64,000 bases of DNA from Candidatus Poribacteria bacterium (lineage in GTDB: Bacteria > Poribacteria > WGA-4E > WGA-3G), in contig CAXXUA010000002.1 of NCBI GenBank assembly GCA_963663765.2, forward strand, positions 160,001 to 224,000, written 5' to 3'. Positions 8,610-43,846 of the stretch are shown one piece after another (positions within the stretch are counted from its first letter, which is position 1; each line of letters starts with the position of its first letter). The notes below the pieces were generated by a model, which was given only the letters and a program-made list of their open reading frames with translations, had not been told where the DNA came from and did no database searches. Both the position numbers and the translations under genes were made by a program.

Positions 8610-8732
8610 CAGGACTTACGCACACAACGGTAGGCGTGCTTTGTAAGCGCGCCGGAAAACCATAAAAACGCTGATAATGGCGTCATTTTCATCATAATTT
8701 TTGATTAAATCAAGAAAACTACGTAAGTCCTG
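8610..8732 (+). mobile_element. MITE, CAGGACTTACG-TIR family (empty allele)
   Basis: TIRs CAGGACTTACG/CGTAAGTCCTG, 5-bp TSD AATAG. Confidence 0.9.
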
Positions 8733-13546: not shown

Positions 13547-13628
13547 CGTAAATTAATGTACGTTTTTTGGTATACTTATAATAGAGATGTTATTTGTAAC
13601 AAGTGTCTAATTGTTCCTATGAATAAAA

Positions 13629-13818
13629 CAGGACTTATGCAGTTTTCATGATTTGATGAAGAATTATTACGAAAATGGTGTATTTTTCAGCATTTTTTCG
13701 GTTTCCAGCGCGCTTACAAAGCACCAAATCAAGAAATCAACGGTATGAATCATGGCGAATGCCATACGCGCATTCGCCAATATGCATTCCCCGTCTACAA
13801 TTGGGCGCGTAAGTACTG
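13629..13818 (-). mobile_element. MITE, CAGGAC family, with inserted hairpin module
   Basis: Slightly degenerate TIRs, flanks TAAAA/TAATA, insert at 13725-13792. Confidence 0.85.
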
Positions 13819-13908
13819 TAATATTTACTATTTTTGAACTCAATCTCAGGAAAATAATTATACTGTACGTTCTATGATAAATCATTGTAACATAATTGGA
13901 GGCATTAT

Positions 13909-14667
13909 ATGCAATTTGGTTTCATGTCGTCTGTCTGTCCGCCGTTCACGTTGGCAGAACTCATTGACAAAGCAAAACAATACAACTACGAACATTTGGA
14001 ATTCCGTGTAGAATGGGGACACAAACACGGTGTTGAACTGGATTCTTCATCCCAACAACTAAATGATGCAAAAAAGCTCTTAGCTGACAGTGGGATAACA
14101 TTATCATGTATCGCAACAGGGGTCAGATTCATTAATCCCGACGCACAAAAACGGACAGAACAAGTTGAACTATTGAAACGGTACATAGACCTTGCACAAA
14201 AGATGGATGCAAAGAATATACGTTTCTTTGGTGACCCTGTACCAAAAACACCCGTTGAAATAGATAAAACATTAGATTGGGAAGCAGATGGTATCCGCGC
14301 TTGTGACGGTTTAGCTGGTGATGCAGACGTCGCACTCTGTTTAGAGACACACGGTAATCTTCTCGCAAGCTACTTAGCAGAAGTCTTATACCGTGCCGAA
14401 GCACAAAACACTTATGTGAACTGGCACGCAGCACATCATGTCAGACACGGACAACCTGTGGATGTCGCTTATGTACATCTACGAAATAAAATAAGACATG
14501 CACATGTGAGTTTCGGTAATGAAGGTGACATGCCAGATACAGAAAGGGATTCTCTGCAACTGCTCAAAAAAGATAACTATGAGGGGTTTATCTCTATAGA
14601 GGTTATCAATCCAAAAGATTCAGAGGCAGTACTCAAACGACATGCAGAACTATATAAAACTCTCTGA
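13909..14667 (+). CDS. Sugar phosphate isomerase/epimerase (xylose-isomerase-like TIM barrel)
   Basis: LETHG, HAHV and ISIE motifs; GGAGG RBS. Confidence 0.85.
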   Translation: MQFGFMSSVCPPFTLAELIDKAKQYNYEHLEFRVEWGHKHGVELDSSSQQLNDAKKLLADSGITLSCIATGVRFINPDAQKRTEQVELLKRYIDLAQKMDAKNIRFFGDPVPKTPVEIDKTLDWEADGIRACDGLAGDADVALCLETHGNLLASYLAEVLYRAEAQNTYVNWHAAHHVRHGQPVDVAYVHLRNKIRHAHVSFGNEGDMPDTERDSLQLLKKDNYEGFISIEVINPKDSEAVLKRHAELYKTL

Positions 14668-14708
14668 TTCGGTTGACGTTATAAGACAAGGTAGAATTAA
14701 CGATAAAC

Positions 14709-14735
14709 GGTGGGCATGCAGGACGCATGTCTACC
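14709..14735. terminator. Hairpin between convergent genes
   Basis: GGTGGGCATGC...GCATGTCTACC stem. Confidence 0.45.
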
Positions 14736-14744
14736 AAATATCAT

Positions 14745-15074
14745 CTATACACTAAATGATTCTCCGCAACCACAAGTGTTTTTTGCATTCGGATTGCTTA
14801 TCTTGAAACCAGACTCCATTAGACCGTCATTGTAATCTAATACCGAACCCGCAAGATATAGTGAACTGCGCGGATCAATGAACACTCTTAGACCGTGAAA
14901 CTCATAAACTCTATCTGTCTCTTTTTTGCCACTGAATTCAAGGCTATATTGAAATCCTGAACATCCACCCCCAATAACCTGCATGCGTAACCCAAGATCC
15001 TCTTCGGTACTACTATCGTTGCTACTTATGAGTGTAATAGCTTTTTGTGCTGCAGCTTCTGTTACATTAATCAT
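14745..15074 (-). CDS. iscA: A-type Fe-S carrier (IscA/ErpA/HesB)
   Basis: GGGCSGFQY and CGCGESF motifs. Confidence 0.9.
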   Translation of the reverse strand: MINVTEAAAQKAITLISSNDSSTEEDLGLRMQVIGGGCSGFQYSLEFSGKKETDRVYEFHGLRVFIDPRSSLYLAGSVLDYNDGLMESGFKISNPNAKNTCGCGESFSV

Positions 15075-15448
15075 TGCAATGTCTCCTGTTTTGAAAATGA
15101 ACTTACTATCGCATTTTTGAGCACTTCTTCTGCGTAGGTCGCAAAACGTAATTTGTCCTCTGGTAGTCCACCTAATGCGTTTGAAATATCCGATTCGGTG
15201 ATATTATCTGCAGCTGAAATGCTGTTATTGATGACCAATTCTGTAAGCACTGAACCACTTGCTATCACTGTTGGACACCCGAACGCACGAAACTTCGCAT
15301 CAATAACAATACCATCTGATATTTTTAACGTTAGTTTCAGCATCTCCCCACTAGCTGCAGAACCGATTGTCGCTGTACCATCCGCATCAGCAATTGTACC
15401 AACATTAAGTGGATTTTCAAAATGTTCAGTTACCTCTTGAGAATACAT
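15071..15448 (-). CDS. iscU: IscU/NifU-N scaffold-like protein with degenerate ligands
   Basis: MYSQEVTEHFENPLNVG, KFRAFGCP, LGGLP motifs; only one Cys retained. Confidence 0.8.
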   Translation of the reverse strand: MYSQEVTEHFENPLNVGTIADADGTATIGSAASGEMLKLTLKISDGIVIDAKFRAFGCPTVIASGSVLTELVINNSISAADNITESDISNALGGLPEDKLRFATYAEEVLKNAIVSSFSKQETLQ

Positions 15449-15630
15449 AGCACATTACCAACTAAGACATACAACGCATCACAATAACTTCTTTTATTCC
15501 ATATTATAACTTATAATTATTCAAATGTCAATAACTTTACACATACCAACTACAATTCCCACTTGATAATTTTTCAAGTTTTGTTTATTATATAGGGACA
15601 CTTTGGTTGATTACCGGAATCATTTATTAA

Positions 15631-15822
15631 CAGGACTTACGCACCTAACGGTAGGCGCGCTTTGAAGGCGGGGAATGCCAAAAGGCATTCATACCCGGGG
15701 AATGCCAAAAGGCATTCATACCGTTGATTTCTTGATTTGGCGCTGGAAACCAAAAAAATGCTGAAAATTACACCTTTTTCGTCATAATTCTACATCAAAT
15801 TATGAAAACTGCGTAAGTCCTG
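15631..15822 (+). mobile_element. MITE, CAGGAC family, with tandem hairpin insert
   Basis: 13-bp perfect TIRs, TSD ATTAA, insert at 15670-15739. Confidence 0.92.
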
Positions 15823-15842
15823 ATTAAAAGGAGGACACGAGT

Positions 15843-16865
15843 ATGGCAGGTAAACTGAAAGTGGCAGCTGTAGGTTGTGGTGGAATCGGATTGTTACATC
15901 AGCACGGTTATCTGAAACATCAAGGTGCAGAATTGGTGGCTGTGTGTGATATAGACACTAACAAAGCAAAAAAACGCGCAGATGAACTTAGTATTGACAA
16001 GTGGTATCCATCCATTAAAGAAATGCTTGCGAATGAAGAGTGTGACCTCGTCGACGTAGTGACTGCAGACAATTTACATTTTGAACCTGTGATGGAGTGT
16101 CTTGAAGCTGGAAAACATGTTATTTCTGAAAAACCGCTGGCTCTTGACATAAATGAAGCAGAACAGATGGTGACAAAAGCAGAAGAAAAAGGTGTCCACC
16201 TCGCTATAGACTACAATAGACGCTTTGCACCAGGTTATGTACAAGCAAGAAAATGGTTTGACAATAATGCTATCGGACAGACATATTATCTTGATATGAA
16301 ACTATCACAAGGTGGACCCGCCTCAACTTGGAAAGGTGAGTATTATCTACTCTACGAATTACAGACGCATGCACTGGACCTATTACGCTGGTTTGGTGGA
16401 GAGATTGTTGGTGTTTGTGCAGAAATGGTAAAACCAAGAAAAAATGAAGCACGCGAAGGTGAAAACGCTTGTTTTACAAGCATGGCAATCTCACTGCGAT
16501 ATGAAACAGAAACTGTCGCAACGTTGTTGGCAAGTTGGGATAGCGATTTTATCCATCCAATTGAGCGACTTGAAATATGCGGTTCAAAAGGTGAGATCCT
16601 TGTTGATAATGTCCTCAACAAAGCAACACTCATGAAACGCGACAACCAAGTTGTTGAAGAATATCGTCCTTCTATTTTCCGAAATGAACAACTCGCTTTT
16701 GATGGCACTTTCGCGCTACGTATGGCTGCATTGGTTGATGACCTACTAAATAACCGAATCCCAGAACCTACTGGTAAGGACGGTTTGCAGGCAATGCGGA
16801 TCACTGAAGCAATCGTGGAATCATGGAAAGAAAAACGTGAAATCATGGTAAAAATAGACAATTAA
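15843..16865 (+). CDS. Gfo/Idh/MocA oxidoreductase
   Basis: GCGGIG Rossmann motif, EKP motif, AGGAGG RBS. Confidence 0.92.
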   Translation: MAGKLKVAAVGCGGIGLLHQHGYLKHQGAELVAVCDIDTNKAKKRADELSIDKWYPSIKEMLANEECDLVDVVTADNLHFEPVMECLEAGKHVISEKPLALDINEAEQMVTKAEEKGVHLAIDYNRRFAPGYVQARKWFDNNAIGQTYYLDMKLSQGGPASTWKGEYYLLYELQTHALDLLRWFGGEIVGVCAEMVKPRKNEAREGENACFTSMAISLRYETETVATLLASWDSDFIHPIERLEICGSKGEILVDNVLNKATLMKRDNQVVEEYRPSIFRNEQLAFDGTFALRMAALVDDLLNNRIPEPTGKDGLQAMRITEAIVESWKEKREIMVKIDN

Positions 16866-16888
16866 CACTGTGCAATACTACATTAAAC

Positions 16889-17056
16889 CAGGACTTACGC
16901 ATTAAACGGTAGACGAGGAATGGTATATAACATTCATACCTAGGGAATGCCATTGGGCGAAGGCGCGTACGGCATTCGCAGTGGTTCATACCGTTGATTT
17001 GCCGGTCGCGATTTTCTCAGGAAACCACCAAAATACCTAAAACTGAATAACCCTGG
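16889..17056 (+). repeat. Chimeric MITE remnant
   Basis: CAGGACTTACGCA left end, hairpin modules, and a right end AAAACTGAATAACCCTG belonging to the CAGG family. Confidence 0.7.
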
Positions 17057-17123
17057 CTTAAGTGTGTAATTAATTCTAAAATCTACCATAATATGATACA
17101 ATTGAAATAATAGGGCAGATATA

Positions 17124-18035
17124 ATGGACTGGAAAGAACCCCTACAAGATATAATAACCCAACCCACCACACGACTACGGTTCGCTGAACCACTTGCAAA
17201 GCATACACACTTCGGAATCGGTGGAGAAACAACCGCATTAATAGAAGTCAGCACAAGAGAAGAATTAGCAGCGTTAGCACGTTTTCACAGAAAATGGAAT
17301 ATACCGGTCGCAATCATCGGTAGAGGTGCAAATATGCTGGTAAGTGATAAAGGTTTCAGCGGAATCTGCATAAAATTAATCGGTGAATTAGCACAACTAA
17401 ATGTTGATGGAAATGTTGTTACCGTGGGCGCAGGATTTCCTTTACCAGCACTCTCTAAAGAGATGTCCAGAAAGGGTCTAAGCGGCGTGGAATTTGTTCT
17501 CGGCATACCGGGTACTGTCGGGGGCGCACTCACCATGAACGCTGGGGCATGGGGAAGCAGTTTTGGGGATGTTGTAACAAACGTAACTGTGATGCAGGAT
17601 ACAGGTGAACTCCTAAAGTTAACGCGCTATGAAGCAAACTTTGAATATCGGCGCAGCTGTCTGCATACCTACTTCTGCATCGTAGGGGCAACTTTAACAC
17701 TCACACCTGGAGAAGTAGATACAATTACGGCTAAAATGAACAAACTCTTTAAACAGAAAATAGAAACGCAACCTTTTGTTGAAGAGAATGCCGGGTGTAT
17801 GTTCAAAAATCCACCAGGAGACTCGGCTGGACGACTCATAGACATCAGCGGATTGAAAGGACACCGTATTGGCGGTGCAGAAGTGTCCACAATACACGGA
17901 AATTTTATCCTCAATACCAACAACGCTACAGCAGCAGACGTCTTAGAATTGGTTGACTACATCCAAAATCAGGTGCGTAATAAAACAGGTATCTCACTCG
18001 AAACAGAGGTAAAACGCTTAGGTTTCAAGACATAG
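17124..18035 (+). CDS. murB: UDP-N-acetylmuramate dehydrogenase
   Basis: GRGAN, GIPGTVGGALTMNAGA, GCMFKNP, HGNF and LETEV motifs. Confidence 0.95.
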   Translation: MDWKEPLQDIITQPTTRLRFAEPLAKHTHFGIGGETTALIEVSTREELAALARFHRKWNIPVAIIGRGANMLVSDKGFSGICIKLIGELAQLNVDGNVVTVGAGFPLPALSKEMSRKGLSGVEFVLGIPGTVGGALTMNAGAWGSSFGDVVTNVTVMQDTGELLKLTRYEANFEYRRSCLHTYFCIVGATLTLTPGEVDTITAKMNKLFKQKIETQPFVEENAGCMFKNPPGDSAGRLIDISGLKGHRIGGAEVSTIHGNFILNTNNATAADVLELVDYIQNQVRNKTGISLETEVKRLGFKT

Positions 18036-18122
18036 AAAATTCATCCCTGACAATATAATTCTTTTACAACCCATTTTAAAAAAAGTCAGATAGCAAAAAG
18101 AACAGCTGAATTTAGGATAAAA

Positions 18123-19346
18123 CTAAGGACGAATGACCGTGCCGTCCATCCGACGAACCGGTGACCAACCCCCATTGAGCGGATGTTCAGGAAACGGAAA
18201 ACGTGCAGCAAGTTCCTCATTTACATCTATGCCGAGTCCAGAAGCTTCATTAACCCAAAAACAACCATCCCGAATCTCTGGACACCCTGGGAAAACCTCT
18301 TTGGTATTCTCACCGAAGACATGTTGCTCCTGAATACCGAAGTTGTAACACGCTAAATCTAAGGCAACATTTGCTGCATGTCCAACAGGAGAAACATCAC
18401 CCGGTCCGTGCCAAGCAGTACGCACACCGAAAAACTCACACAACGCCGCAAGTTTCCGAGCTGGACTAATACCCCCGATTTGCGAGATATGCACACGTAT
18501 AAAATCAATGAGTCGGTCCTTGATCAGATGAACATACTCATTCGGGTTGTTAAACAACTCTCCCATCGCAATTGGGATACTCGTTTGTTGCCGCATCAGT
18601 TGGAAATAGTCCACATCTTCAGGTGCAAACGGGTCTTCAAGAAAAAACAGGTTATACGGTTCCAAGCCTTTAGCAAGATTGATCGCTTGAATGGGCGGTA
18701 TCCGTTCATGCACATCATGCAGAAGTTCTACCTCATCCCCTAACTTATTTCGAAGATGATCAAAAAGTTTGATGACGGTATTGACATAAGGCGTGGGTTC
18801 AAATGCTGGAGAACTACGCTTTCCACCACCCGCACCATAAGTAGTATAACCAGGAATCGCAACCTGTGCACGAACATAACGATACCCTTCTTCCATATAC
18901 CGCCTTACACTGTTCTCAACATGCTCAAAACTGCCACCACCTGCATGCGCATAGAGTGTTGCTGCTTCACGACATTTTCCACCCAATAGTTGATAAACGG
19001 GCATATTTGCACGCTTCCCCATAATGTCCCACAGGGCAATGTCCACACCACTGAGAGCGTTGTTCAAAACCGGTCCATTTCGCCAATACGAACTGACAAA
19101 ACTTGTTTGAAAAATATCTTCTATGTTGCTTGGATCTTTCCCAATCAAGAAAGGTTTAAGGTACTCATCAACAGCTGTGGCAACAGCAAGCGGTCGTTGT
19201 GTAAACGTTGCACAACCAACACCGTATAAACCAGGTTCACTCGTTTCAACCTTTACAACGACAAGCCGAATCCCATCAGGCGCAGTCAGAATAGTTTTGA
19301 TGTCTGTTATCTTCAAAATTGCAGTTCTCCTATTATCTATTACCAA
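18123..19346 (-). CDS. Enolase-superfamily sugar-acid dehydratase (ManD/RspA-like)
   Basis: YWRNGPV, HDVHER, FLEDP, MGEL and AWHGPGD motifs. Confidence 0.92.
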   Translation of the reverse strand: MVIDNRRTAILKITDIKTILTAPDGIRLVVVKVETSEPGLYGVGCATFTQRPLAVATAVDEYLKPFLIGKDPSNIEDIFQTSFVSSYWRNGPVLNNALSGVDIALWDIMGKRANMPVYQLLGGKCREAATLYAHAGGGSFEHVENSVRRYMEEGYRYVRAQVAIPGYTTYGAGGGKRSSPAFEPTPYVNTVIKLFDHLRNKLGDEVELLHDVHERIPPIQAINLAKGLEPYNLFFLEDPFAPEDVDYFQLMRQQTSIPIAMGELFNNPNEYVHLIKDRLIDFIRVHISQIGGISPARKLAALCEFFGVRTAWHGPGDVSPVGHAANVALDLACYNFGIQEQHVFGENTKEVFPGCPEIRDGCFWVNEASGLGIDVNEELAARFPFPEHPLNGGWSPVRRMDGTVIRP

Positions 19347-19622
19347 ATTAACCTAAATTGTAAGGACAGGTCTCAAGGGAATGCCGAAAGACAATCATAC
19401 CGTTGATTTGGTTCCCACCCGTGTTCTCTATACTAAAAACAATACACATCACGTTAATTGGGTATAATTTGTTTAGTATGCTAAGTTCTTATGCTAAAAT
19501 TTACCAAACTGAATAGGGCTTGTCAAGCGAAATCTGACGAAGGGATGTGAAAAGTTCTTTCTACAACAGACGCGTCAATTTATGGATTTTAACCTCTTGT
19601 GGGAGGGGTTTTCAACCCCGAT

Positions 19623-19908
19623 TACAGTAAGACATATAATTAATTGGACATTTTGAGCATCAAACATTTAGTTTGTGCTGATGCAGACACAAACTAAATG
19701 AAGATTAATTTATTAATTCGGTAATAAAATATTTCTCCAACGGTAGGCGGGGGAATGCCTAAATGGCATCCATACCCGGGGAATGCCTTACTGGCATTCA
19801 TACCGTTGATTTGGAGGTCGCTCCTACCAAATAAAAGAATCGGATACTTACATGACAGCCAATATGGTAAATTGTAGAAATGTAAACTTATTTTCAAATT
19901 TCACCATA
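19623..19908. mobile_element. TA-bounded MITE-like element carrying REP hairpins
   Basis: Imperfect ends TACAGTAAG.../...TTTCACCATA; segments shared with 37253-37578 and 58842-58970. Confidence 0.6.
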
Positions 19909-20053
19909 GTTGTTTTTTTCAAAATTTCGCAAAAACAAGAAACAGCCTTAAACCCATACCACGACACGGTCGAGAACACTTATGAAAATAGGATAAAAAA
20001 CAAGAAAAAACAACTAAAAAATTACGCGATTACACAGGTTACTCATATTTTCT

Positions 20054-20082
20054 TTGACAATCATGACATGACAAAGTATAAT
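20054..20082 (+). promoter_or_regulatory. Consensus sigma70 promoter
   Basis: TTGACA-17 bp-TATAAT. Confidence 0.7.
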
Positions 20083-20129
20083 ATAGCACATTATTTTTTC
20101 ACAATTCTAATTACCTATGAGTGAATAGG

Positions 20130-20308
20130 ATGAGAAATCCGTTTTCAAATATATTCAATAAGTACTCCAAAAAGGTCGGACTTCCCCCTAGCATACTCAT
20201 ATATGCTGGTGAAGAACGGGATGAATCCACAAAAATTGAGCTGATTGATTACAATGACACGCACTGTCAAGAAAGTATAGTTGAATCCATCAATGATTAT
20301 GTTAGTTA
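20130..20308 (+). pseudogene. corA: N-terminal fragment of CorA Mg2+ transporter
   Basis: SKKVGLPPSILIYAGE...KIELIDY resembles the CorA N-terminus. It is cut by a MITE and the remainder is absent. Confidence 0.65.
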
Positions 20309-20501
20309 CAGGACTTACGCACCTAACGGTAGGCGGGGAATGCCAAAACGGCATTCATACCGTTGATTTGGCGCTTTGTAAGCGGGGAATGCCAAAAGGC
20401 ATTCATACCGTTGATTTGGCGCTGGAAACACAAATAATGTTGAAAATTACATCATTTTCATCACAATTCTTGATTAAATCATGAAAACTGCGTAAGTCCT
20501 G
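20309..20501 (+). mobile_element. MITE, CAGGAC family, with two independent hairpin inserts
   Basis: Perfect TIRs, TSD AGTTA, inserts at 20335-20370 and 20384-20418. Confidence 0.92.
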
Positions 20502-20536
20502 AGTTATTGTTATCATATGGGTGTGAAGGAGTTATT

Positions 20537-21133
20537 ATGCAATTCAATTCAAGTAATAAACATTGTACACCATTATTACTACTTTTAATTTATATTGCAT
20601 CATTAAGTGGTTGTGATCAGTATGATAATTTGAAGAACAACCCACCCAAAATCAACAGTCTTGATGTTCCTGAAAAGGTTCAATATGGTGAAACAGTTGA
20701 ATTCAAAGTTTCTACTTTTGATGCTGAAGAGGATACCTTAACCTATTTGTGGTACGTTTCGGATGGATCATTAGTTGATGATACCAATCCTATCGTAAAA
20801 TGGATAGCTCCTGAATTACCAGATAAGGAAGTCGTACCATCAGTTACAGTTACAGTGTACATCAATGTTCGAGACGAAGGTGAAGATGATATTTCCCAAT
20901 CTGCTTCAATATCAGTTTATTCAAAAGTTTATGAAGTAGCAAACACACTCAGTGGAGAATATGAACTTCTAAGAACCCAAGTTGACGAGGCCACATTAGA
21001 TCCTTCAAGCGGAACTATGCGTTTGACCATTTCTACGTTTACAAGTGAATTTGATACAGGAGACCAATTCTACTCAGGCGCTTATGAACTGGTAGAACCC
21101 TTTGATGAAAATATCAGAACAAAACAATGGTGA
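20537..21133 (+). CDS. Lipoprotein with Ig/PKD-like domain, possibly truncated
   Basis: AAGGAG RBS before the ATG at 20537, lipobox LSGC, NNPPKINSL...LTYLW segment. Confidence 0.7.
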   Translation: MQFNSSNKHCTPLLLLLIYIASLSGCDQYDNLKNNPPKINSLDVPEKVQYGETVEFKVSTFDAEEDTLTYLWYVSDGSLVDDTNPIVKWIAPELPDKEVVPSVTVTVYINVRDEGEDDISQSASISVYSKVYEVANTLSGEYELLRTQVDEATLDPSSGTMRLTISTFTSEFDTGDQFYSGAYELVEPFDENIRTKQW

Positions 21134-21491
21134 AAGAATCATTGTTCCTGACAATACAACAATTTCTGATGAAGCTATTAAATTGATTGAAGAAAAAGCA
21201 ATAACAGATGCAAAAAATGATGCAAAAAAACATATTAATAAAACTATTTGGTTTTCTGTTGGGTGCTTTCTACCAGTGGTTGGACCCATATATTCTCAAA
21301 GAAAAATCAAAACTATACCACTCGCGAGGACCCTTGGAAAATCACCTGAATATATCGCATTCTACACAGATAACTATCGTCTTGAAATAAAAAAACAACG
21401 ATTCACTTGGGGGTTAAGTGGGTGTATTGTTGGGGGACTCACAGACGCATGTTTGATCGGCATTCTTATTAATAGATATGTAATTCATTGA
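21102..21491 (+). CDS. Hypothetical membrane protein, possibly a C-terminal fragment
   Basis: Two hydrophobic segments, weak start, overlaps the previous ORF. Confidence 0.55.
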   Translation: MMKISEQNNGERIIVPDNTTISDEAIKLIEEKAITDAKNDAKKHINKTIWFSVGCFLPVVGPIYSQRKIKTIPLARTLGKSPEYIAFYTDNYRLEIKKQRFTWGLSGCIVGGLTDACLIGILINRYVIH

Positions 21492-21520
21492 TTCAGAATT
21501 CATTAGTAAAGGCAAAAAGC

Positions 21521-21854
21521 CAGGGTTATTCAGTCTTCAATATTTTTGATAGTATTTTGCTATGTCGTTAATATTATGTAATACCATCTTATCCATGTCT
21601 TTAGTTCCGTAGGAACGACATAGAAGAATAAACATATCGTCCCTACCGAATCAACGCCAAATGCGCCAAATCAAGAAATCAACGGTATGAATGCCTTTTG
21701 GCATTCCCCGTGTGGCATTTGGCGGGACTAAAGAGCGATATTCATGTTTCAATAATGTAGAATTGATGCGTAAAGTTCGGTTAGGAAACCGAACCTGGAT
21801 ATTAACTTTCAGTAAATCTCAAGAACAGAAAACTCTTAAAACTGAATATCCCTG
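21521..21854 (+). mobile_element. MITE, CAGG-TIR family
   Basis: Ends CAGGGTTATTCAGT / ACTGAATATCCCTG, flanks GCAAAAAGC/GCAAAAGGC, colinear with 39918-40768. Confidence 0.85.
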
Positions 21855-21882
21855 GCAAAAGGCGGATAAGTGTAGTTTTAAT

Positions 21883-22611
21883 ATGTATCATATTTTTTCA
21901 ATTAACTCCATAGTAGTCTTTAAAACTGCATTTACCTTATTACTGTTATTGTCTTCTGTTCTACCTGCTTTTAGTCAATTTGCGGATTTACCGAATGATG
22001 CCAAGACAGTGGATTTTGGGTTTTCTGGCGATAGAAAATCGCAAACACTCTCATTGACTGGAGTGCTCCCTTTCAAGAATATAAACGGATGGGGTGGAAT
22101 TTTTGGATCGCGAGCAACGGGTGAAAACACTGTCCTTTCAGAAACCATAAAGATACATATACAAGGCGGCATGCGCGTCAGTAAAATCGGTATTGAAGCT
22201 TTTACTGATTTAGAACGCAACATTAGCAAAGGCAGCGCATTAACTTCACAAATCGGGAGTTATATTAGACCGGGCATATATCAAAATGGAACTCTCCGTA
22301 TATCAGGAGGAGTTGGATACTTCATTGAGAATATTCAACCTCATAAAGATCTAACATTACGCAAATTTGATCCTACTTCATTTAGATGGTTAACGTTTTC
22401 ATCTATCGGCTGGAAGAAACTAAATACAATACTGAAATTCACACCAGAAGTTGGTTTCAAAAACTACCGATTTTCAGCAGAACCCGCACTTACTATCGGT
22501 ATTACTACCAGATTGGGATTGCGGTTAAGCGGGTCATTCACATACAATAGCGCACCATTAACCGAAAATTTACAATATAAATATCTCTCAATATTACGTA
22601 TCACACTTTGA
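21883..22611 (+). CDS. Predicted outer-membrane beta-barrel protein (DUF481-like)
   Basis: Signal peptide after the ATG at 21883 and alternating amphipathic strands. The upstream ORF extension lies inside a MITE. Confidence 0.6.
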   Translation: MYHIFSINSIVVFKTAFTLLLLLSSVLPAFSQFADLPNDAKTVDFGFSGDRKSQTLSLTGVLPFKNINGWGGIFGSRATGENTVLSETIKIHIQGGMRVSKIGIEAFTDLERNISKGSALTSQIGSYIRPGIYQNGTLRISGGVGYFIENIQPHKDLTLRKFDPTSFRWLTFSSIGWKKLNTILKFTPEVGFKNYRFSAEPALTIGITTRLGLRLSGSFTYNSAPLTENLQYKYLSILRITL

Positions 22612-22742: not shown

Positions 22743-25028
22743 ATGCTTTTTAACTTTGGACAACAAAACAGATCAAGAAACAGGGACAGTAATACTGTTC
22801 AACAACATGGGCACGGTTTTGGAACTGCACCTGTATTTCTTGCATCTATAAGTACTATCCTTGGAGCAATTCTCTTCTTACGTTTCGGATATGCTGTCGG
22901 TCATGTAGGACTATTCAATAGTATCGCCATCATTTTAATCGGACATCTCGTAACAATACCAACAGTTTTGGCTGTTTCAGAGGTCGCTACAAACCGTCGT
23001 GTGGCAGGTGGAGGAGCATATTATATCGTTAGTCGTTCCTTCGGAACCAGCATCGGTGGAACAATCGGAATCGCACTGTATATTTCTCAAGCAATATCTA
23101 TAGCATTCTATATGGTAGCATTCGCTCAAGCATTTGGTCCGGTATTTGAATGGATAGTAATCAACTATGATAGAATTGAAGGTCCCATCGATCTCCGATG
23201 GTTAAGTCTACCAGGCACTATTATACTTATTCTAATGATGTTAACCAAAGGCGCAGATATGGGGGTCTCATTGCTGTGGTTAATCTGTGGCTTACTTACA
23301 GTGTCACTGGTGACTTTTTTTATGGGTAAACCACTTGCTAATATTGATCCTGACAGTTTGCGAATTACACAAGGCATAGTAGGAGGTGATTCTTTCGGTA
23401 AAGTCTTTGCAATATGTTTTCCAGCATTTACCGGTATGATTGCCGGTTTAGGTCTATCTGGTGACTTGAGGAATCCTCAACGCAGTATACCTCTTGGCAC
23501 CATTGGGGCAACTCTTGCTGGACTGGTGATATACCTACTTGTTGCTGTTAAACTGTTTCAAAGTGCACCACCTGAACAACTCGCAAATGTGGATGAAATC
23601 ATTATGGCAAAGATCTCAATATGGCCAGCAGCAATTTATATCGGATTGGCGGCAGCTTCGTTTTCATCGGCACTCGGTTCAATCATGGTAGCACCGAGAA
23701 CACTTCAAGCTCTTGCAAAGGACAATGTTTTGCCAATACCTGCTTTAAACCGACTCATGCAAACTGGAGTTGGAAAAAGCAAGGAACCTATTCCCGCAAC
23801 ATTCGTATCCGGTATCATTGCAATCGTTTTTGTAGCAATTGGTGAACTTAACTATATTGCTCAGATTCTTACCATGTTCTTCTTAGTAACTTATGGAGCA
23901 CTCTGTATTGTCTCTTTTCTTGAACATTTTGCAGGAAATCCTTCTTACCGACCAACCTTCCATTCTCGCTGGTACGTATCACTGTTAGGTACAGTGATGT
24001 GCGGATTGATGATGATACAGATACACCTATTTTTCGCTATCGTATCCATCGTACTAATGATAGCAGTATATATCGGACTCCGTAGGGGTAGTAGCGAACA
24101 ACGTGGTATGTCAGCAATATTTCAAGGCGCTATGTTCCAATTGACAAGATGGCTACAAACAACATTGCAGAAAAACAGAGTTAATCTATCGGAAAGTGGT
24201 TGGCGTCCTTCAATCGTTGCAATTACACAATTTGGTGAACGACGACTCGGACATTTCGATTTGCTACGGTGGTTATGCCATAGACACGGATTTGGACACT
24301 TCATTCAGTTTTTTCCAGGAGATTACTCCTTCCCTGAAGAAATATCCGCGCGAATTCATGTCGACGCACTCATCCAACAAACTGAAGCAAGTAAAGCTGG
24401 TATATTTGTAGATTCACTTATATGTCCTTCCTTCCAACTTGCTTTAGCACACGTCCTCCAAATGCCAGGTATCTCTGGTTTACCCAACAACTCCATCCTG
24501 CTGGAATTTGACAAAAACCACCCTGAAGAAATTGGTGAGGTAAAACAAGGTTCATTGCTTGCTGTGGAATCTTTGTTTAATGTTCTGATATTACGTTCAA
24601 CAAAATACCGTTTTGGATACCGTTCATCAATTCATGTTTGGGTAAATGATGCTAATATTAGCAACGTACCCATGATGTTGTTACTCGCATATATTTTAGT
24701 TGGGCACCCAGAATGGAAACGGGCAAAAATTCGTCTGTTTGCTTGTTCAGATTCTTGGGAAACCGAACTTGATGCTGATGAACTCGCAACAGTCATAAAA
24801 GAAGGTAGACTCCCAATCTCAATGCAAAATGTCACATCGGTTTCCTACGACAACTATGAAACATTAGAAGCAGAAGTTACACAGAGATCCGCACAAGCGG
24901 ATTTGGTTATCGTTGGGTTAACCTTAGAAGATATCACATCAGGGAACTTAGAACAAGAACTACAACGATACCAAGGTGTAAACGATGTCCTATTTGTCCA
25001 CTCAATTGAAAAAATCGCAATTGACTAA
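22743..25028 (+). CDS. Prokaryotic cation-chloride cotransporter (SLC12-like)
   Basis: LGAILFLRFG, GGGAYYIVSRSFG and FPAFTG...SGDLRNPQRSIPLGT motifs, plus a large C-terminal domain (WRPS). Confidence 0.88.
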   Translation: MLFNFGQQNRSRNRDSNTVQQHGHGFGTAPVFLASISTILGAILFLRFGYAVGHVGLFNSIAIILIGHLVTIPTVLAVSEVATNRRVAGGGAYYIVSRSFGTSIGGTIGIALYISQAISIAFYMVAFAQAFGPVFEWIVINYDRIEGPIDLRWLSLPGTIILILMMLTKGADMGVSLLWLICGLLTVSLVTFFMGKPLANIDPDSLRITQGIVGGDSFGKVFAICFPAFTGMIAGLGLSGDLRNPQRSIPLGTIGATLAGLVIYLLVAVKLFQSAPPEQLANVDEIIMAKISIWPAAIYIGLAAASFSSALGSIMVAPRTLQALAKDNVLPIPALNRLMQTGVGKSKEPIPATFVSGIIAIVFVAIGELNYIAQILTMFFLVTYGALCIVSFLEHFAGNPSYRPTFHSRWYVSLLGTVMCGLMMIQIHLFFAIVSIVLMIAVYIGLRRGSSEQRGMSAIFQGAMFQLTRWLQTTLQKNRVNLSESGWRPSIVAITQFGERRLGHFDLLRWLCHRHGFGHFIQFFPGDYSFPEEISARIHVDALIQQTEASKAGIFVDSLICPSFQLALAHVLQMPGISGLPNNSILLEFDKNHPEEIGEVKQGSLLAVESLFNVLILRSTKYRFGYRSSIHVWVNDANISNVPMMLLLAYILVGHPEWKRAKIRLFACSDSWETELDADELATVIKEGRLPISMQNVTSVSYDNYETLEAEVTQRSAQADLVIVGLTLEDITSGNLEQELQRYQGVNDVLFVHSIEKIAID

Positions 25029-25069
25029 AGACAAATAGTGTCCTGATGAACATTATGGGATAGTAATTC

Positions 25070-26272
25070 ATGGGAGATTTACTCCAACAATTTGATAAGT
25101 TCCTAAAGAAACCCGCCATTCGGTTGGAACAAGATGTAAGTTTTGGAAATTTGTTTCTTCTAATCGGGGTTCTGGTACTAACTTTTATTATTGCAATATT
25201 CTTACGTCGATGGTTCCGAAGGTTATTTGTTAGATTGAAAATTCAAGGTAACCTTCAAAACCGATTACTTGCTATTCTGTTCCTTATCATAATGATAGTG
25301 GGTATAGGGGTAGCTTTCAACGTATCAAAAATAAGTTCTGAACTAATTGACACAGTTTTTAACTACCCTCTTGCCGATCTATTTCAAACCAGCAAAGATA
25401 CTGTGGAATCCGATGCAGGTGATGAAACATCTATAACTGATGATGAAGAAGTCAGAAGACTTACAATAGCAAGACTATTTTACGGTTTTGTTATCGTCTT
25501 TGGCATGTTTATTCTCTCAAAATATGTCCAAGTTGTTATCAGAACACAAGTATTGCAGTCATTTCAAATTGAGAAACACAACCAATTCATAATACTTCGT
25601 TTATTTCACTTTTGTCTTATTACGATTGGGGTTTTAATCAGTCTTAGCACACTTGGGATTGGTCTAACAAACATAGCGTTGATATTCGGTGGGTTGAGTA
25701 TCGGCATTGGTTTTGGTTTACAGAACACTGTTGCGAATTTGATTTCAGGTTTGATATTGATTTTTGAACGCCCTATCAAAATTGGTGATTTAGTGGAAAT
25801 TATGGATGTCAACATATTTGGTAGGGTGAGTAGTATCAACCTACGTTCAACAGTAATTATGGCAGTTGATGAAAAGGAAGTCATTGTTCCCAATTCACAA
25901 TTGATTACAGAACCGGTTCATAACCTAACACATTATAATAATAGGTTTCGGGTTCACATACAGGTAAGTGTTTCGTTTAACTCAGATGTAGAACTCGTAA
26001 AAAATGCACTAATTGAGGTCGCGTATGCACACCCTGAGGTGATTAAAGAACCGACACCTGAAATGGAAAACGTTACTGCCCCATTTGTACGATTTATAAA
26101 CTTCGGAGAATCGTCTTTAGACTTTGAATTGTTTGCTTGGATTCCTGATTCTTTCTTAAGATTTGATGTTGCGAGTGATCTTCATTTTATGGTTTGGGAA
26201 AAATTTAAGGAACACGACATCAAAATCCCATTCCCACAACGCGACGTACATTTCTTCCCAACAGAAAACTAA
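25070..26272 (+). CDS. MscS-family mechanosensitive channel
   Basis: GIGFGLQN...SGLILIFERPIKIGD, FGESSL and IPFPQRDV motifs. Confidence 0.93.
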   Translation: MGDLLQQFDKFLKKPAIRLEQDVSFGNLFLLIGVLVLTFIIAIFLRRWFRRLFVRLKIQGNLQNRLLAILFLIIMIVGIGVAFNVSKISSELIDTVFNYPLADLFQTSKDTVESDAGDETSITDDEEVRRLTIARLFYGFVIVFGMFILSKYVQVVIRTQVLQSFQIEKHNQFIILRLFHFCLITIGVLISLSTLGIGLTNIALIFGGLSIGIGFGLQNTVANLISGLILIFERPIKIGDLVEIMDVNIFGRVSSINLRSTVIMAVDEKEVIVPNSQLITEPVHNLTHYNNRFRVHIQVSVSFNSDVELVKNALIEVAYAHPEVIKEPTPEMENVTAPFVRFINFGESSLDFELFAWIPDSFLRFDVASDLHFMVWEKFKEHDIKIPFPQRDVHFFPTEN

Positions 26273-37579: not shown

Positions 37580-37701
37580 AAGGACTTACGCACCGAACGG
37601 TAGGCGTGCTTTGTAAGCGCGCTGGAAACCTAAATAATGCTGAAAATATCATCATTTTCGTCGTAATTCTTGACTAAAACATGAAAACTGCGTAAGTCCT
37701 G
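37580..37701 (+). mobile_element. MITE, CAGGAC family (empty allele)
   Basis: TIRs with first base C>A; AATAA on both sides. Confidence 0.88.
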
Positions 37702-43724: not shown

Positions 43725-43846
43725 CAGGACTTACGCAGTTTTCATGATTTGATGAAGAATTATGACGAAAATGGTGTAATTTTCAGGATTTTTTCGGTTT
43801 CCAGCGCGCTTACAAAGCACGCCTACCGTTGGGTGCGTAAGTCCTG
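43725..43846 (-). mobile_element. MITE, CAGGAC family (empty allele)
   Basis: Perfect 13-bp TIRs, TSD CTATA. Confidence 0.92.

Follow-up and report, generated by a model that had tools for sequence, protein, structure and literature searches.

Evidence that a 36-nt single-hairpin unit was gained or lost many times inside unrelated repeats of Candidatus Poribacteria

The unit and its copies in the window

In the 64-kb stretch of poribacterial DNA analysed here (64,000 nucleotides, hereafter the window), a single MITE copy carries two small hairpin inserts, which raises the question of whether such a hairpin, here called E, is a mobile unit in its own right and of how it would move. The first-pass annotation had answered that E is a minimal single-hairpin mobile unit that parasitises other repeats and is mobilised in trans by HUH/Y1 enzymes. 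Its reading of two separate inserts is confirmed, as 20335-20418, within the 191-bp MITE copy 20310-20500, reads TAGGC-GGGGAATGCCAAAACGGCATTCATACCGTTGATTTG-GCGCTTTGTAAGC-GGGGAATGCCAAAAGGCATTCATACCGTTGATTTG-GCGCTGG. The features of the window are the following.

8631..8652, + strand: empty site (MITE REP hairpin without E), empty form TAGGCGTGCTTTGTAAGCGCGC
13725..13792, - strand: E with 2 octamers, inserted in a MITE copy at site 1; its loop holds a second hairpin, GGCGAATGC...GCATTCGCC
15670..15739, + strand: E array (2 hairpins, 2 octamers) occupying site 2 of the MITE copy 15632-15821, left flank GAAGGC
16915..17001, + strand: degenerate composite, a decayed E hairpin, then E with another hairpin in its loop, GTTGATTT and a host-C-type right flank
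19377..19409, + strand: degenerate E with 2 core mismatches in a further host, GGACAGGTCTC...GGTTCCCACCCGTG
19750..19813, + strand: E array of 2 hairpins (loops TAAAT and TTACT) and 1 octamer, with mixed flanks
20310..20500, + strand: host MITE copy, 191 bp (basic 120 bp), ends AGGACTTACGCA...TGCGTAAGTCCT
20335..20370, + strand: E copy 1, hairpin (loop AAAAC), GTTGATTT and G, at GTAGGC^GCGC (site 1)
20384..20418, + strand: E copy 2, hairpin (loop AAAA), GTTGATTT and G, at GTAAGC^GCGC (site 2)
21667..21709, - strand: E of 1 hairpin and 2 octamers, its site being the loop of a hairpin of host B type, CCAAATGCCACAC^GCGCATTTGGCG
37601..37622, + strand: empty site, empty form TAGGCGTGCTTTGTAAGCGCGC
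43804..43825, - strand: empty site, empty form TAGGCGTGCTTTGTAAGCGCGC

The MITE copy at 20310..20500 bears one GTAGG-tagged REP hairpin, GTAGGCG[T/C]GCTTTGTAAGCGCGC. Copy 1 lies in the 5' arm of this hairpin and has a 7-bp stem of -6.9 kcal/mol as DNA (z -2.3), and copy 2 lies in the 3' arm and is among the few site-2 copies that keep GTAAGC. The other copies proposed for the window were all recovered, those at 19376-19410 and 16915-17001 in the degenerate state that had been described, and so were the empty alleles, whose form occurs three times in the window and in none of 100 shuffles. The array reported at 19749-19813 is present too, except that its flanks, GGTAGGC on the left (host A type) and GGAGGTCGCTCCTACC on the right (the reverse complement of the host C REP), are unrelated and that no empty allele was found for 19751-19812.

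E consists of a bulged hairpin of 27 nt, (C)GGGGAATGCC, a 4-5-nt loop and GGCATTCATACC, with a stem of 7 bp and an ATA bulge. Downstream come GTTGATTT, between 0 and 5 additional CTTGATTT octamers and usually a single G, the basic unit of hairpin and short tail being 36 nt long. With up to 3 mismatches allowed, its 19-nt core is found at 8 places in the window (0 in 100 shuffles) and 595 times in the genome, 351 of these exactly. Genome-wide, 617 hairpins are grouped into 500 arrays, and the hairpin is followed by GTTGATTT in 427 cases and by another hairpin in 105. Among the 617 hairpins the loop varies (TAAAT 176, AAAA 159, TTAAT 68, ATAA 46, ATACG 44) while stem and tail are constant, just as had been noticed in the window. 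The stem is maintained through paired changes (G-C to A-T in 30 and C-G to T-A in 38 of 629 units, with G-T intermediates). The tail GTTGATTT is not restricted to E: it likewise follows the hairpin class GCATTTGGC, in 126 cases, and the class GCATTCGGC, in 12. As a word it occurs 1279 times in the genome compared to 413 for the reversed word.

E has no terminal inverted repeats, unlike the 120-bp host MITE, and no GTAG/CGTC tag on its top strand. It is akin to the GTAGG-tagged REPs of the genome; its opposite strand reads AAATCAAC-GGTATG-hairpin, with a tag-like GGTATG beside the stem, and is similar to the host REP's CAACGGTAGG-hairpin. A search of Rfam with E gave no family, the sole match being a sub-threshold miRNA (22 bits against a gathering score of 70), and the literature search returned no match to its sequence words. 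This nano-repeat, which belongs to the sponge-symbiont lineage Poribacteria, is non-coding and non-autonomous.

Junctions, host sites and the MITE phylogeny

Genome-wide, an empty paralogue with identical 10-nt flanks is present for 291 of the 500 arrays. The insertion is clean in 237 of these testable arrays: the two junctions overlap by 1 nt in 198 of them, by 2 nt in 19 and not at all in 20. As had been stated, the target is thus not duplicated, an ambiguous G apart. The other 54 junctions are ragged, with 1-3 host bases replaced. Clean junctions are C^G in 196 cases, T^G in 19, C^C in 10, C^T in 5 and of another kind in 7; among 37 distinct 6+6-nt site classes, 19 are C^G and 26 have C at -1. 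The C^G site originally proposed is therefore a strong preference and not a rule, 41 clean junctions departing from it, and the final G, although usual, is absent in some hosts. Given that the left flanks of E are GGC, TAC, CCC, ACC or TCC, C is the sole base common to them.

E is found in GTAGG-tagged REPs (which flank the two RAYT genes of the genome), in the 120-bp MITE (219 oriented copies with inverted ends, 89 of exactly 120 bp), in a few unique hairpins and in E itself. At least 8 host site types were distinguished in this genome, in agreement with the observation that some hosts are unrelated REP types, and further ones were seen in 99 loci of other Poribacteria MAGs, with C before GGGG in every case. 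The commonest position, in ~200 of the 500 arrays, is directly 3' of the REP tag as GTAGGC/GGGG. The orientation of E relative to its host is always the same. As to the surroundings, 492 of the 500 arrays lie outside crude ORFs of at least 150 aa, and E has no fixed position relative to genes (139 arrays co-directional with the flanking genes, 159 opposite, 136 divergent and 52 convergent).

Both flanks are repeated in 287 of the 500 arrays and one flank in 160, and the loop type tracks the host site, TAAAT dominating at A1, AAAA at A2, TTAAT at B and AATA at D. Much of the copy number of E thus comes from co-amplification with its hosts, and independent E events are far fewer than 500. Taken to its limit, this would make E only a passenger, inserted or originally present once per host family and then amplified with the host and occasionally deleted. 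The MITE backbone tree speaks against such a history. Presence of E requires 42 changes at site 1 and 29 at site 2, close to the means of shuffled labels (42.9 and 30.5), while a control SNP requires 23 against a shuffle mean of 43 (0 of 300 shuffles as low). Presence of E is hence scattered like shuffled labels where the control SNP clusters, the filled copies are not one clade, and the possibility that all of them descend from one long ancestral MITE by deletion is refuted. At site 2, furthermore, 27 of 31 filled copies have GTAGGC and all but one of ~140 empties have GTAAGC (r2 0.79), when deletion from filled copies should leave GTAGGC empties. Many different hosts are occupied in other species, and E is abundant where host A is nearly absent. 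The passenger history, which we rate as barely credible, is largely refuted by the tree and by the site-2 empties.

At site 1, presence of E shows an r2 of 0.034 with a T/C SNP 2 nt away and of at most 0.072 with any column. E was gained as a discrete unit and without target duplication, in either the stem or the loop of hairpin-forming repeats and after a C (mostly at C^G, with GGC^G frequent), and these gains occurred many times, independently of the host phylogeny and of the SNP 2 nt away; ordinary homologous gene conversion is for this reason inadequate as an explanation. Overall, the data support many gains or losses of E as a discrete single-hairpin unit inside unrelated repeats.

Could such gains come about with no dedicated enzyme, through templated copying? 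The copying would take place either by template switching when replication stalls at hairpins or by short-patch gene conversion, with microhomology (GTAGG or ACC, for example) as the seed. Several observations fit. The 54 ragged junctions are of this kind, and the A-to-G change at -3 that accompanies E at site 2 resembles a templated copy of the donor flank. In hosts C and D two host bases are regularly lost, giving ACC-C-E and GTAGG-C-E respectively (the latter form is found in another REP of other species as well), and the mixed flanks at 19751-19812 and the persistence of E in genomes with no Y1 match point the same way. However, template switching usually leaves variable ends, whereas the left end C/GGGG is constant and the right end nearly so across unrelated hosts with no common flank. 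Moreover, E at site 1 is unlinked to the neighbouring SNP, and host B, host-type E and G sites show clean insertion with neither GTAGG nor a longer microhomology. We consider templated copying unlikely as the source of the gains.

The host REPs and E have a common strand polarity across hundreds of kb. The polarity domains were drawn from the orientation of E itself, so that only the host counts are informative, and these are +163/-39 for host A empties in one domain set and +10/-206 in the other. As the polarity is also seen in empty hosts it is not independent evidence for E; it is consistent with an ssDNA-based, replication-linked insertion of the whole repeat system. With a 100-kb half-window, 314 of 493 arrays have the top strand of E on the C-rich strand, compared to 265 of 493 with 200 kb, the GC skew being weak and noisy.

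Transposase genes and distribution among genomes

The genome encodes one intact RAYT, listed below, a second RAYT that is frameshifted and ended by a contig boundary (C10), and copies of IS200/IS605 TnpA+TnpB.

C4:621598-622074: intact RAYT, 159 aa

These genes lend the proposed mobilisation in trans by a Y1 HUH enzyme (RAYT or IS200/IS605 TnpA), acting on hairpin-defined ssDNA, its candidates, and the lack of target duplication and the strand polarity of the repeat system agree with it. In the ~200 of 500 arrays where E follows GTAGGC, a GTAG-tagged bulged hairpin is formed that is REP-like, although GTAGGC is there the flank of the host. According to the part of Messing 2012 available to us (PMC3479197), TnpA-REP of E. 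coli needs the GTAG tag and the bulge of the stem, cuts ssDNA at both sides of the hairpin and is able to transfer strands. The same source bears on the opposite side too, since a GTAG guide predicts cleavage at C^T and the junction of E is C^G.

The search for a Y1/RAYT gene flanked by E, or for an IS110 gene, did not bear out the first-pass annotation. E is the flanking repeat in none of 36 Y1/RAYT loci (6 in this genome and 30 RAYT-like loci of other species), each RAYT clade being flanked by its own GTAGG REP. The nearest E in this genome is located in the first host-A REP of the array preceding the C10 fragment, 590 bp from the Y1 match, and in G018 two E copies lie 1.2 kb from the RAYT. 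The resident IS (1757 bp, TnpA+TnpB) ends in CCCACTGCCTAAAGGCAGGGG and CCCACAAGCTAAAGCATGGGG, unlike E, and IS200/IS605 ends were ruled out as the source of E, being unrelated. The IS110 domains PF01548 and PF02371 gave 0 matches in this genome (G000) and were positive in 6 of 14 control genomes; the Y2/IS91 profile PF04986 matched none of the control genomes and hence carries no information. Among 20 cases of genes situated between two E arrays, the products look ordinary by their first 60 residues and none is a Y1 match.

The distribution across genomes was as follows. The E core is present in each of the 39 other genomes of the genus and in 58 of 65 of the sister genus (97 of 104 together), at 1 to 484 copies per genome. 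It is missing from all 7 genomes that represent four other genera, with the reversed control giving 0 everywhere. Among the loci listed from the sequence collection, the core was found in Candidatus Poribacteria MAGs only, together with one 'uncultured bacterium'. PF01797 (Y1) had no match in G024 (1 contig), G001 (4 contigs) and G010, whose completeness of 92-97% means that absence of a Y1 gene is not proven for them. These genomes hold 213, 168 and 158 E cores respectively (up to 3 mismatches), whose state of decay does not exceed that seen in other genomes (exact share 0.46-0.59). In all three the RAYT-linked host A REP is nearly gone (2, 3 and 7 copies). Conversely, G003 has 3 Y1 matches and 0 exact E cores, and G009 has 21 Y1 matches and 3 exact cores. 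Finally, a simple HUH cut-and-paste predicts neither the 54 ragged junctions of 291 nor the base change 3 nt to the left at site 2. The part of the original proposal that describes a discrete unit inserted in unrelated repeats thus stands, and mobilisation by Y1/RAYT appears improbable to us.

The near-identity of the core in 97 of 104 other genomes, at a coding identity of 84-88% in the nearest species (G045 and G016), could also reflect purifying selection on a cellular function, E being a protein-binding site or a structural signal in RNA or DNA, and the paired stem changes and the location of nearly all arrays outside ORFs would suit this. The lack of a fixed position relative to genes, the range of copy numbers and the Rfam result do not, and two orthologous intergenic regions in G045 and G016 are without the E-bearing MITE copies. 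In these two regions the whole MITE is missing, which permits no statement on E alone. As function alone would leave the origin of the copies unexplained, we give this explanation only a slim chance.

In four public runs from four studies the region 13000-22500 is covered by short-read contigs ending at repeats; one joint skips 15670-15739, at a repeat-level depth, and may stem from paralogues. Among metagenome contigs, 0 matches were obtained for the unique flank of one E (C5:~500155), itself situated in a unique hairpin. A metagenome scan with the E core yielded 127 loci, among them 8 orthologous pairs that are 100% identical throughout and hence carry no information on polymorphism. None of these comparisons revealed an orthologous locus that is polymorphic between strains or species.

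The reading that we favour, at a probability of about one in two, is that E is non-autonomous and is moved as hairpin-folded single-stranded DNA by a trans-acting strand transferase that is neither the REP-flanked RAYT nor the IS200/IS605 Y1 transposase. Such an enzyme would recognise the hairpin and tail and would act on single-stranded hairpin targets during replication. In a minority of events 1-3 bases of the donor flank would be copied or host bases replaced, so that the joining would not always be a clean phosphodiester swap. No excised or circular form of E was seen, and no enzyme was identified. More tentatively, E and the related AAATCAAC/GTTGATTT-tagged hairpins might all be moved by an undescribed hairpin-specific machinery other than Y1/RAYT, IS110 or DDE and conserved in the two Poribacteria genera. 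If so, E would be a 36-nt hyperparasite of REP elements, among the smallest mobile DNA units, and its mechanism class would be the same as that of the cyanobacterial small dispersed repeats (SDRs).

Relation to known repeat systems

The closest analogues of E are the REP/BIME elements and these SDRs. To our knowledge, precisely inserting non-coding elements of 20-40 nt have already been described (SDRs and some REPs) and their mode of movement was never settled. SDR1-8 of heterocyst-forming cyanobacteria, 21-27 nt long, were reportedly described by Elhai et al. in 2008 in Genome Res 18:1484, and we know of no transposase identified for them. As far as the available text of the later papers goes, SDR5 enters the HIP1 octamer at a point between fixed bases (PMC4390886, PMC5861425) and SDRs were not found outside Nostocaceae (PMC5861425). 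By these descriptions, SDRs resemble E as very small hairpin units (27 nt for the hairpin of E) inserted precisely in other repeats and in each other; they differ in that E belongs to another phylum, has an octamer tail common to several hairpin classes and has RAYT-type REPs as hosts. E acts in the manner of an SDR but, coming from Poribacteria and not from a cyanobacterium, is not classed as one.

IS200/IS605 elements are hairpin-defined, move as single strands with no target duplication and show a replication-tied orientation. Their two subterminal hairpins differ from each other and their target on the left, of 4-5 nt, is conserved, whereas E has one hairpin, only a left C and no IS-like ends, unlike an IS200/IS605 miniature. 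Features of this type are also given in the accessible part of Messing 2012 (PMC3479197). E further differs from classical DDE-derived MITEs, having neither terminal inverted repeats nor a target site duplication, and from IS110/IS1111 elements in that no DEDD transposase gene was detected in the genome.

Going by the portions available of the work on REP/BIME/REPIN and RAYT (TnpA-REP) systems (Nunvar 2010, PMC2817692; Bertels & Rainey 2011, PMC3116915; Messing 2012, PMC3479197), E shares with these elements a short imperfect bulged palindrome and hundreds of intergenic copies throughout a lineage. The repeats that host E do belong to this class, with a GTAGG tag and arrays flanking RAYT genes. 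E itself differs in having no GTAG/CGTC tag of its own, no RAYT that it flanks and no co-occurrence with RAYT across genomes, in being a single hairpin and not an inverted doublet, in its abundance where no Y1 match is found, and in its C^G junction as compared to the C^T of E. coli TnpA-REP. In the available part of Di Nocera et al., small target palindromes regularly contain inserted REP families, and hundreds of copies of the target in its unfilled state are likewise present in Thermomicrobium roseum; the repeats described there are GTAG-/CGTC-tagged REPs or dimers, and the junctions, self-nesting and independence of host phylogeny are stated as not analysed.

By its behaviour E would rank among the smallest known mobile DNA units, and as material it offers a fixed 36-nt unit, hundreds of filled/empty pairs, RAYT-type REP hosts and near-complete genomes that keep it with no detectable Y1 transposase. 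If a moving enzyme exists and is found, it would represent a new way of moving DNA into hairpins, and if there is none, replication or repair alone could spread a defined sequence. In practical terms, every copy of these repeats interrupts short-read assemblies of Poribacteria, and the repeats inflate the intergenic DNA.

A minor observation concerns the composition of the arrays. Two hairpins are accompanied by 2 octamers in 63 arrays and by 1 octamer in 5, and, derived on paper, an array of 2 hairpins and 2 octamers cannot be obtained from a 1+1 array by one contiguous insertion. Whole E units are also found in tandem, with a 36-nt period, at C6:362510-362726.

The repeat unit in the window and in the genome

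Two copies of E, a 36-base hairpin-plus-tail repeat unit, lie at 20335-20418 of the window with 13 nt between them, each consisting, in order, of GGGGAATGCC, a loop, GGCATTCATACC, GTTGATTT and a final G. They occupy the junctions TAGGC^GCGC and TAAGC^GCGC in a short hairpin resembling a REP, itself part of a 191-bp MITE copy (20310-20500), and the version of this hairpin without E, TAGGCGTGCTTTGTAAGCGCGC, is found at 8631, 37601 and 43804 (minus strand). The presence or absence of E at exact positions, as reported by the first-pass annotation, is thereby confirmed, and the contents of the remaining window coordinates that it named match its description. The 19-nt E core gives eight matches in the window at ≤3 mismatches as compared to none in 100 shuffles, and on folding as single-stranded DNA the unit forms a 7-bp stem at -6.9 to -7.2 kcal/mol (z -2.3 to -2.8). 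An array of chained E units at 19751-19812 displays a left flank of the host A type and, on the right, the host C hairpin in reverse complement (hosts A to D being hairpin repeat types with E inserted), so that it looks as if two different repeats were joined through E. Between E copies, 19560-19720 contains more small palindromes, such as GGGAGGGGTTTTCAACCCC, and a perfect 40-nt inverted repeat lies at ~19650-19700.

In the 6.35-Mb, 15-contig assembly containing the window (G000), the core occurs 595 times at ≤3 mismatches, 351 of these being exact, while a hairpin-pattern search recovered 617 units. The hairpin is followed by GTTGATTT in 427 of the 617 and by another hairpin (CGGGGAAT...) in 105, and the loops include TAAAT (176), AAAA (159), TTAAT (68), ATAA (46) and ATACG (44). 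These units chain into 500 arrays.

Composition of the 500 E arrays (octamer, the 8-nt tail repeat)
1 hairpin + 1 octamer: 262
1 hairpin + 2 octamers: 87
2 hairpins + 2 octamers: 63
1 hairpin + 0 octamers: 26
1 hairpin + 3 octamers: 17
1 hairpin + 4 octamers: 10
2 hairpins + 3 octamers: 9
2 hairpins + 1 octamer: 5
thirteen rarer combinations: 21 in sum

Octamer repeats beyond the first read CTTGATTT, and successive hairpins are linked by CATACC-C-GGGG. Whole units of E alone also stand in tandem with a period of 36 nt (C6:362510-362726). On the same contig, a regular tandem array of host hairpin plus E with a period of 78-82 nt is observed at C6:322737-323299, and 48 E arrays fall within the single 100-kb stretch C6:300-400 kb. 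Two stem pairs show two-sided changes, from G-C to A-T in 30 of 629 units and from C-G to T-A in 38 of 629, and G-T intermediates also occur; a few amplified lineages may account for these changes. In this genome 492/500 arrays lie outside crude ORFs of at least 150 aa, and no preference was found in the orientation of E relative to neighbouring genes.

Junctions and independence from the host

G000 was scanned for the 10-nt flanks of each array lying ≤6 nt apart, which gave an empty paralogue for 291 of the 500. The filled sequence equals the empty one plus one contiguous insert in 237 of these. Of the clean junctions, 198 show an overlap of 1 nt (a G), 20 show none and 19 one of 2 nt; hence, a single ambiguous base aside, the target is not duplicated. 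With leftmost placement they read C^G in 196, T^G in 19, C^C in 10, C^T in 5 and otherwise in 7, and in the T^G cases E comes after the tail of a second E copy. Among 37 distinct site classes, 19 show C^G and 26 a C at -1. The other 54/291 junctions are ragged, some being just point changes adjoining the insert, and two hosts are systematically so, namely GTAGG-AG-CGATC, which becomes GTAGG-C-E-CGATC, and GCGACC-TC-CCGG, which becomes GCGACC-C-E-CCGG. Insertion at C^G, as the first-pass annotation had claimed, thus holds for most junctions (237/291 clean, 196/237 C^G) but not fully, given the ragged cases and these two hosts.

A tree was built from 179 classifiable copies, among 205 length-filtered ones, of the MITE, a 120-bp element holding one GTAGG-tagged REP hairpin; 26 copies with other inserts were left out, and the alignment comprised the head and a 78-nt backbone, E and the REP being excluded. 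Site 1 is GTAGGC^GCGC in the 5' arm and site 2 GTAAGC^GCGC in the 3' arm of the REP hairpin.

Changes on the MITE tree
E at site 1: 51 copies, 42 changes, shuffle mean 42.9, 133/300 shuffles as low
E at site 2: 34 copies, 29 changes, shuffle mean 30.5, 81/300 shuffles as low
Control T/C SNP in the REP arm, outside the tree alignment: 114 T, 23 changes, shuffle mean 43.0, 0/300 shuffles as low

Given that the control SNP clusters while E is scattered like the shuffles, the tree is informative and the E-filled copies do not form a clade. Descent of all filled copies from one long MITE, the alternative that the first-pass annotation had set against its own claim, is therefore contradicted.

Linkage was examined in 155 MITE copies aligned after in-silico removal of E. 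At site 1, E shows a maximum r2 of 0.072 with any common SNP and of 0.034 with a T/C SNP 2 nt from the junction; being unlinked to all common SNPs speaks for precise gain or loss rather than homologous gene conversion. In the case of site 2, E goes together (r2 0.79) with an A-to-G change 3 nt leftward, and GTAGGC or a near form is found there in 27 of 31 filled copies versus 1 of ~140 empty ones. Frequent loss of E would make such GTAGGC empties common, yet they are rare, indicating that E brings the G along, as though the copying extended to a few bases of the donor flank. Furthermore, the loop type of E correlates with the host site, hence much of the E copy number reflects co-amplification with hosts.

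Host repeats, their RAYT genes and the enzyme question

The reading of E as a mobile unit is supported, and the interesting point of the system is what moves it. Six Y1_Tnp matches were found in G000. They belong to an IS200/IS605 element of 1757 bp (TnpA 139 aa, TnpB 370 aa; four copies or fragments) and to two RAYT-like genes.

Y1_Tnp loci of G000
C5:687134-690487, C3:286218-289571 and C5:549367-552720 (L001-L003): three IS200/IS605 copies, 98% identical
C5:351559-354873: fourth IS200/IS605 copy, rearranged
C4:621598-622074: intact RAYT-like gene, 159 aa
C10:~24500-25277 (L006): second RAYT-like gene, frameshifted after ~55 codons and cut by the contig end

The end hairpins of the resident IS200/IS605 element, CCCACTGCCTAAAGGCAGGGG and CCCACAAGCTAAAGCATGGGG, were considered as a source of E and rejected, being unrelated to it. 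The C4 RAYT-like gene is surrounded by arrays of GTAGGAGCGATCTCCGAATCGCGAC and GTAGGAGGGAACTCCGATTCCCGAC hairpins. In this 'REPtron', outside the window (C4:620098-623574, L106), 5 D-type and 4 D2-type GTAGG-tagged hairpins stand upstream of the gene and 31 D2-type copies downstream in regular periods of 37-120 nt (all at ≤3 mismatches), and these neighbours are shared by the orthologues in G005, G020, G007 and G004. Upstream of the C10 gene there are about nine tandem copies of CTGCAGGCGTGCTTTGTAAGCGCGC (host A), the hairpin hosting E in the window, and the first of this run holds an E. Elsewhere in the genus each RAYT clade is flanked by its own GTAGG hairpins, including host C, GTAGGAGCGACCTCCYGGTCGCGAC. 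Considering these REP arrays around RAYT genes, the hosts of E are ordinary RAYT-type REPs together with the MITE containing one (219 oriented copies, 89 of exactly 120 bp).

The MITE has the ends CAGGACTTACGCA...TGCGTAAGTCCTG (window 15632-15821 and 13630-13816; L128, L129), and the copy at 15632 is flanked by ...tattaa on the left and attaaaagg on the right, a sequence pattern that suggests a short A/T-rich target duplication. Further hosts are a hairpin with E's own tail (host B), a few unique hairpins and E itself. Host B, CGCCAAATGCC-ATAC-GCGCATTTGGCG, has 126 copies in G000 with the GTTGATTT tail as on E (e.g. window 21640-21730) and is enclosed by a larger GTCCC...GGGAC palindrome; the repeats are thus nested on at least three levels.

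Mobilisation in trans by an HUH/Y1 enzyme, proposed by the first-pass annotation, was not borne out. Indeed, E is the flanking repeat at 0/6 Y1 loci of G000, 0/10 RAYT loci of the genus and 0/20 further Y1/RAYT loci in other species, hence 0/36 overall. In G018 two E copies are found 1.2 kb from a RAYT gene, of which the immediate flanks are the RAYT's own REPs. Moreover, of 40 genomes in the genus, 36 contain a PF01797 match, the exceptions being G024 (1 contig), G001 (4 contigs), G010 and G042; genuine absence of a Y1 gene from these genomes (completeness 92-97%) is likely, though not proven. E cores (≤3 mismatches) are nevertheless abundant there, with 213 in G024, 168 in G001 and 158 in G010, of which a share of 0.46-0.59 is exact versus 0.35-0.59 in RAYT-bearing genomes, whereas the RAYT-linked host A hairpin has 2, 3 and 7 copies respectively versus 817 in G000. 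Thus host A follows its RAYT and E does not. In addition, G003 has 3 Y1 matches and 0 exact E cores, and G009 has 21 and 3. As for IS110 genes flanked by E, also suggested, a profile search found no IS110 domains in G000.

Kinship with REPs, distribution and strand polarity

The bottom strand of E reads AAATCAAC-GGTATG-AATGCC-loop-GGCATT-CCCC and the MITE REP CAACGGTAGG-CGTGC-loop-GCGCG-CC, and common to both is CAACGGTA-G adjoining the stem. In ~200 of the 500 arrays E directly follows GTAGGC, the host tag and E resembling a tagged, bulged REP hairpin, and in the fold of E after GTAGGC the host ACGGT pairs with E's ACCGT. In G000 the tail GTTGATTT occurs 1279 times versus 413 for the reversed word, and three or four hairpin classes bear it (ATTCATACC 466, GCATTTGGC 126, GCTTCTGAC 15 and GCATTCGGC 12). 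From such sequence likeness we infer that E may be a derived REP bearing its own tag, and it probably descends from a REP. However, compared to the REP/RAYT system, in which its hosts are standard REPs, E itself lacks a REP tag, flanks no RAYT and does not co-occur with RAYTs; since these three features define REPs, E is not classed as one. Its C^G junction also differs from that of E. coli TnpA-REP, of which the GTAG guide sets cleavage at C^T according to Messing et al. 2012 (PMC3479197). Like the REP families inside other palindromes (Di Nocera et al. 2013), E sits within palindromic hosts, and the small dispersed repeats of Nostocaceae appear to be its nearest counterpart in operation. In the literature searched, no paper with the sequence words of E was found, and there was none on REP, RAYT, MITE or palindromic repeats in Poribacteria among the matches listed.

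A hairpin scan of the genome collection gave at least 99 stretches, and the 80 listed are all from Candidatus Poribacteria MAGs but one, from an 'uncultured bacterium'. At ≤1 mismatch the core is present in 39/39 other genomes of the genus, 58/65 of a second genus of the family and 0/7 of four other genera, with 1 to 484 copies per genome where present; the exact core is found in 0/16 genomes of three other families, and the reversed-core control had no match in any of the 112 genomes. Numerous other hairpins serve as hosts of E in other species; the base preceding GGGG is invariably C there, and the right flank varies. At two orthologous intergenic loci (L128, L129) in the two nearest species the whole MITE is missing, short-read contigs end at the repeats, and matching metagenome loci with E are identical to one another.

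In G000 the orientation of E changes block by block, each block extending over hundreds of kb. For empty host A hairpins the counts are +163/-39 in one set of blocks versus +10/-206 in the other, and the block pattern is shared by host C and the MITE backbone, so the polarity is a property of the repeat system as a whole. It is consistent with strand-specific insertion linked to replication and does not single out E. The GC skew of the genome is weak. Joint orientation flips of host A, host C, the MITE and E are seen at C6 ~300 kb, at C3 ~300 kb and on C4 between 300 and 800 kb, and may mark a replication origin or terminus, or assembly joins.
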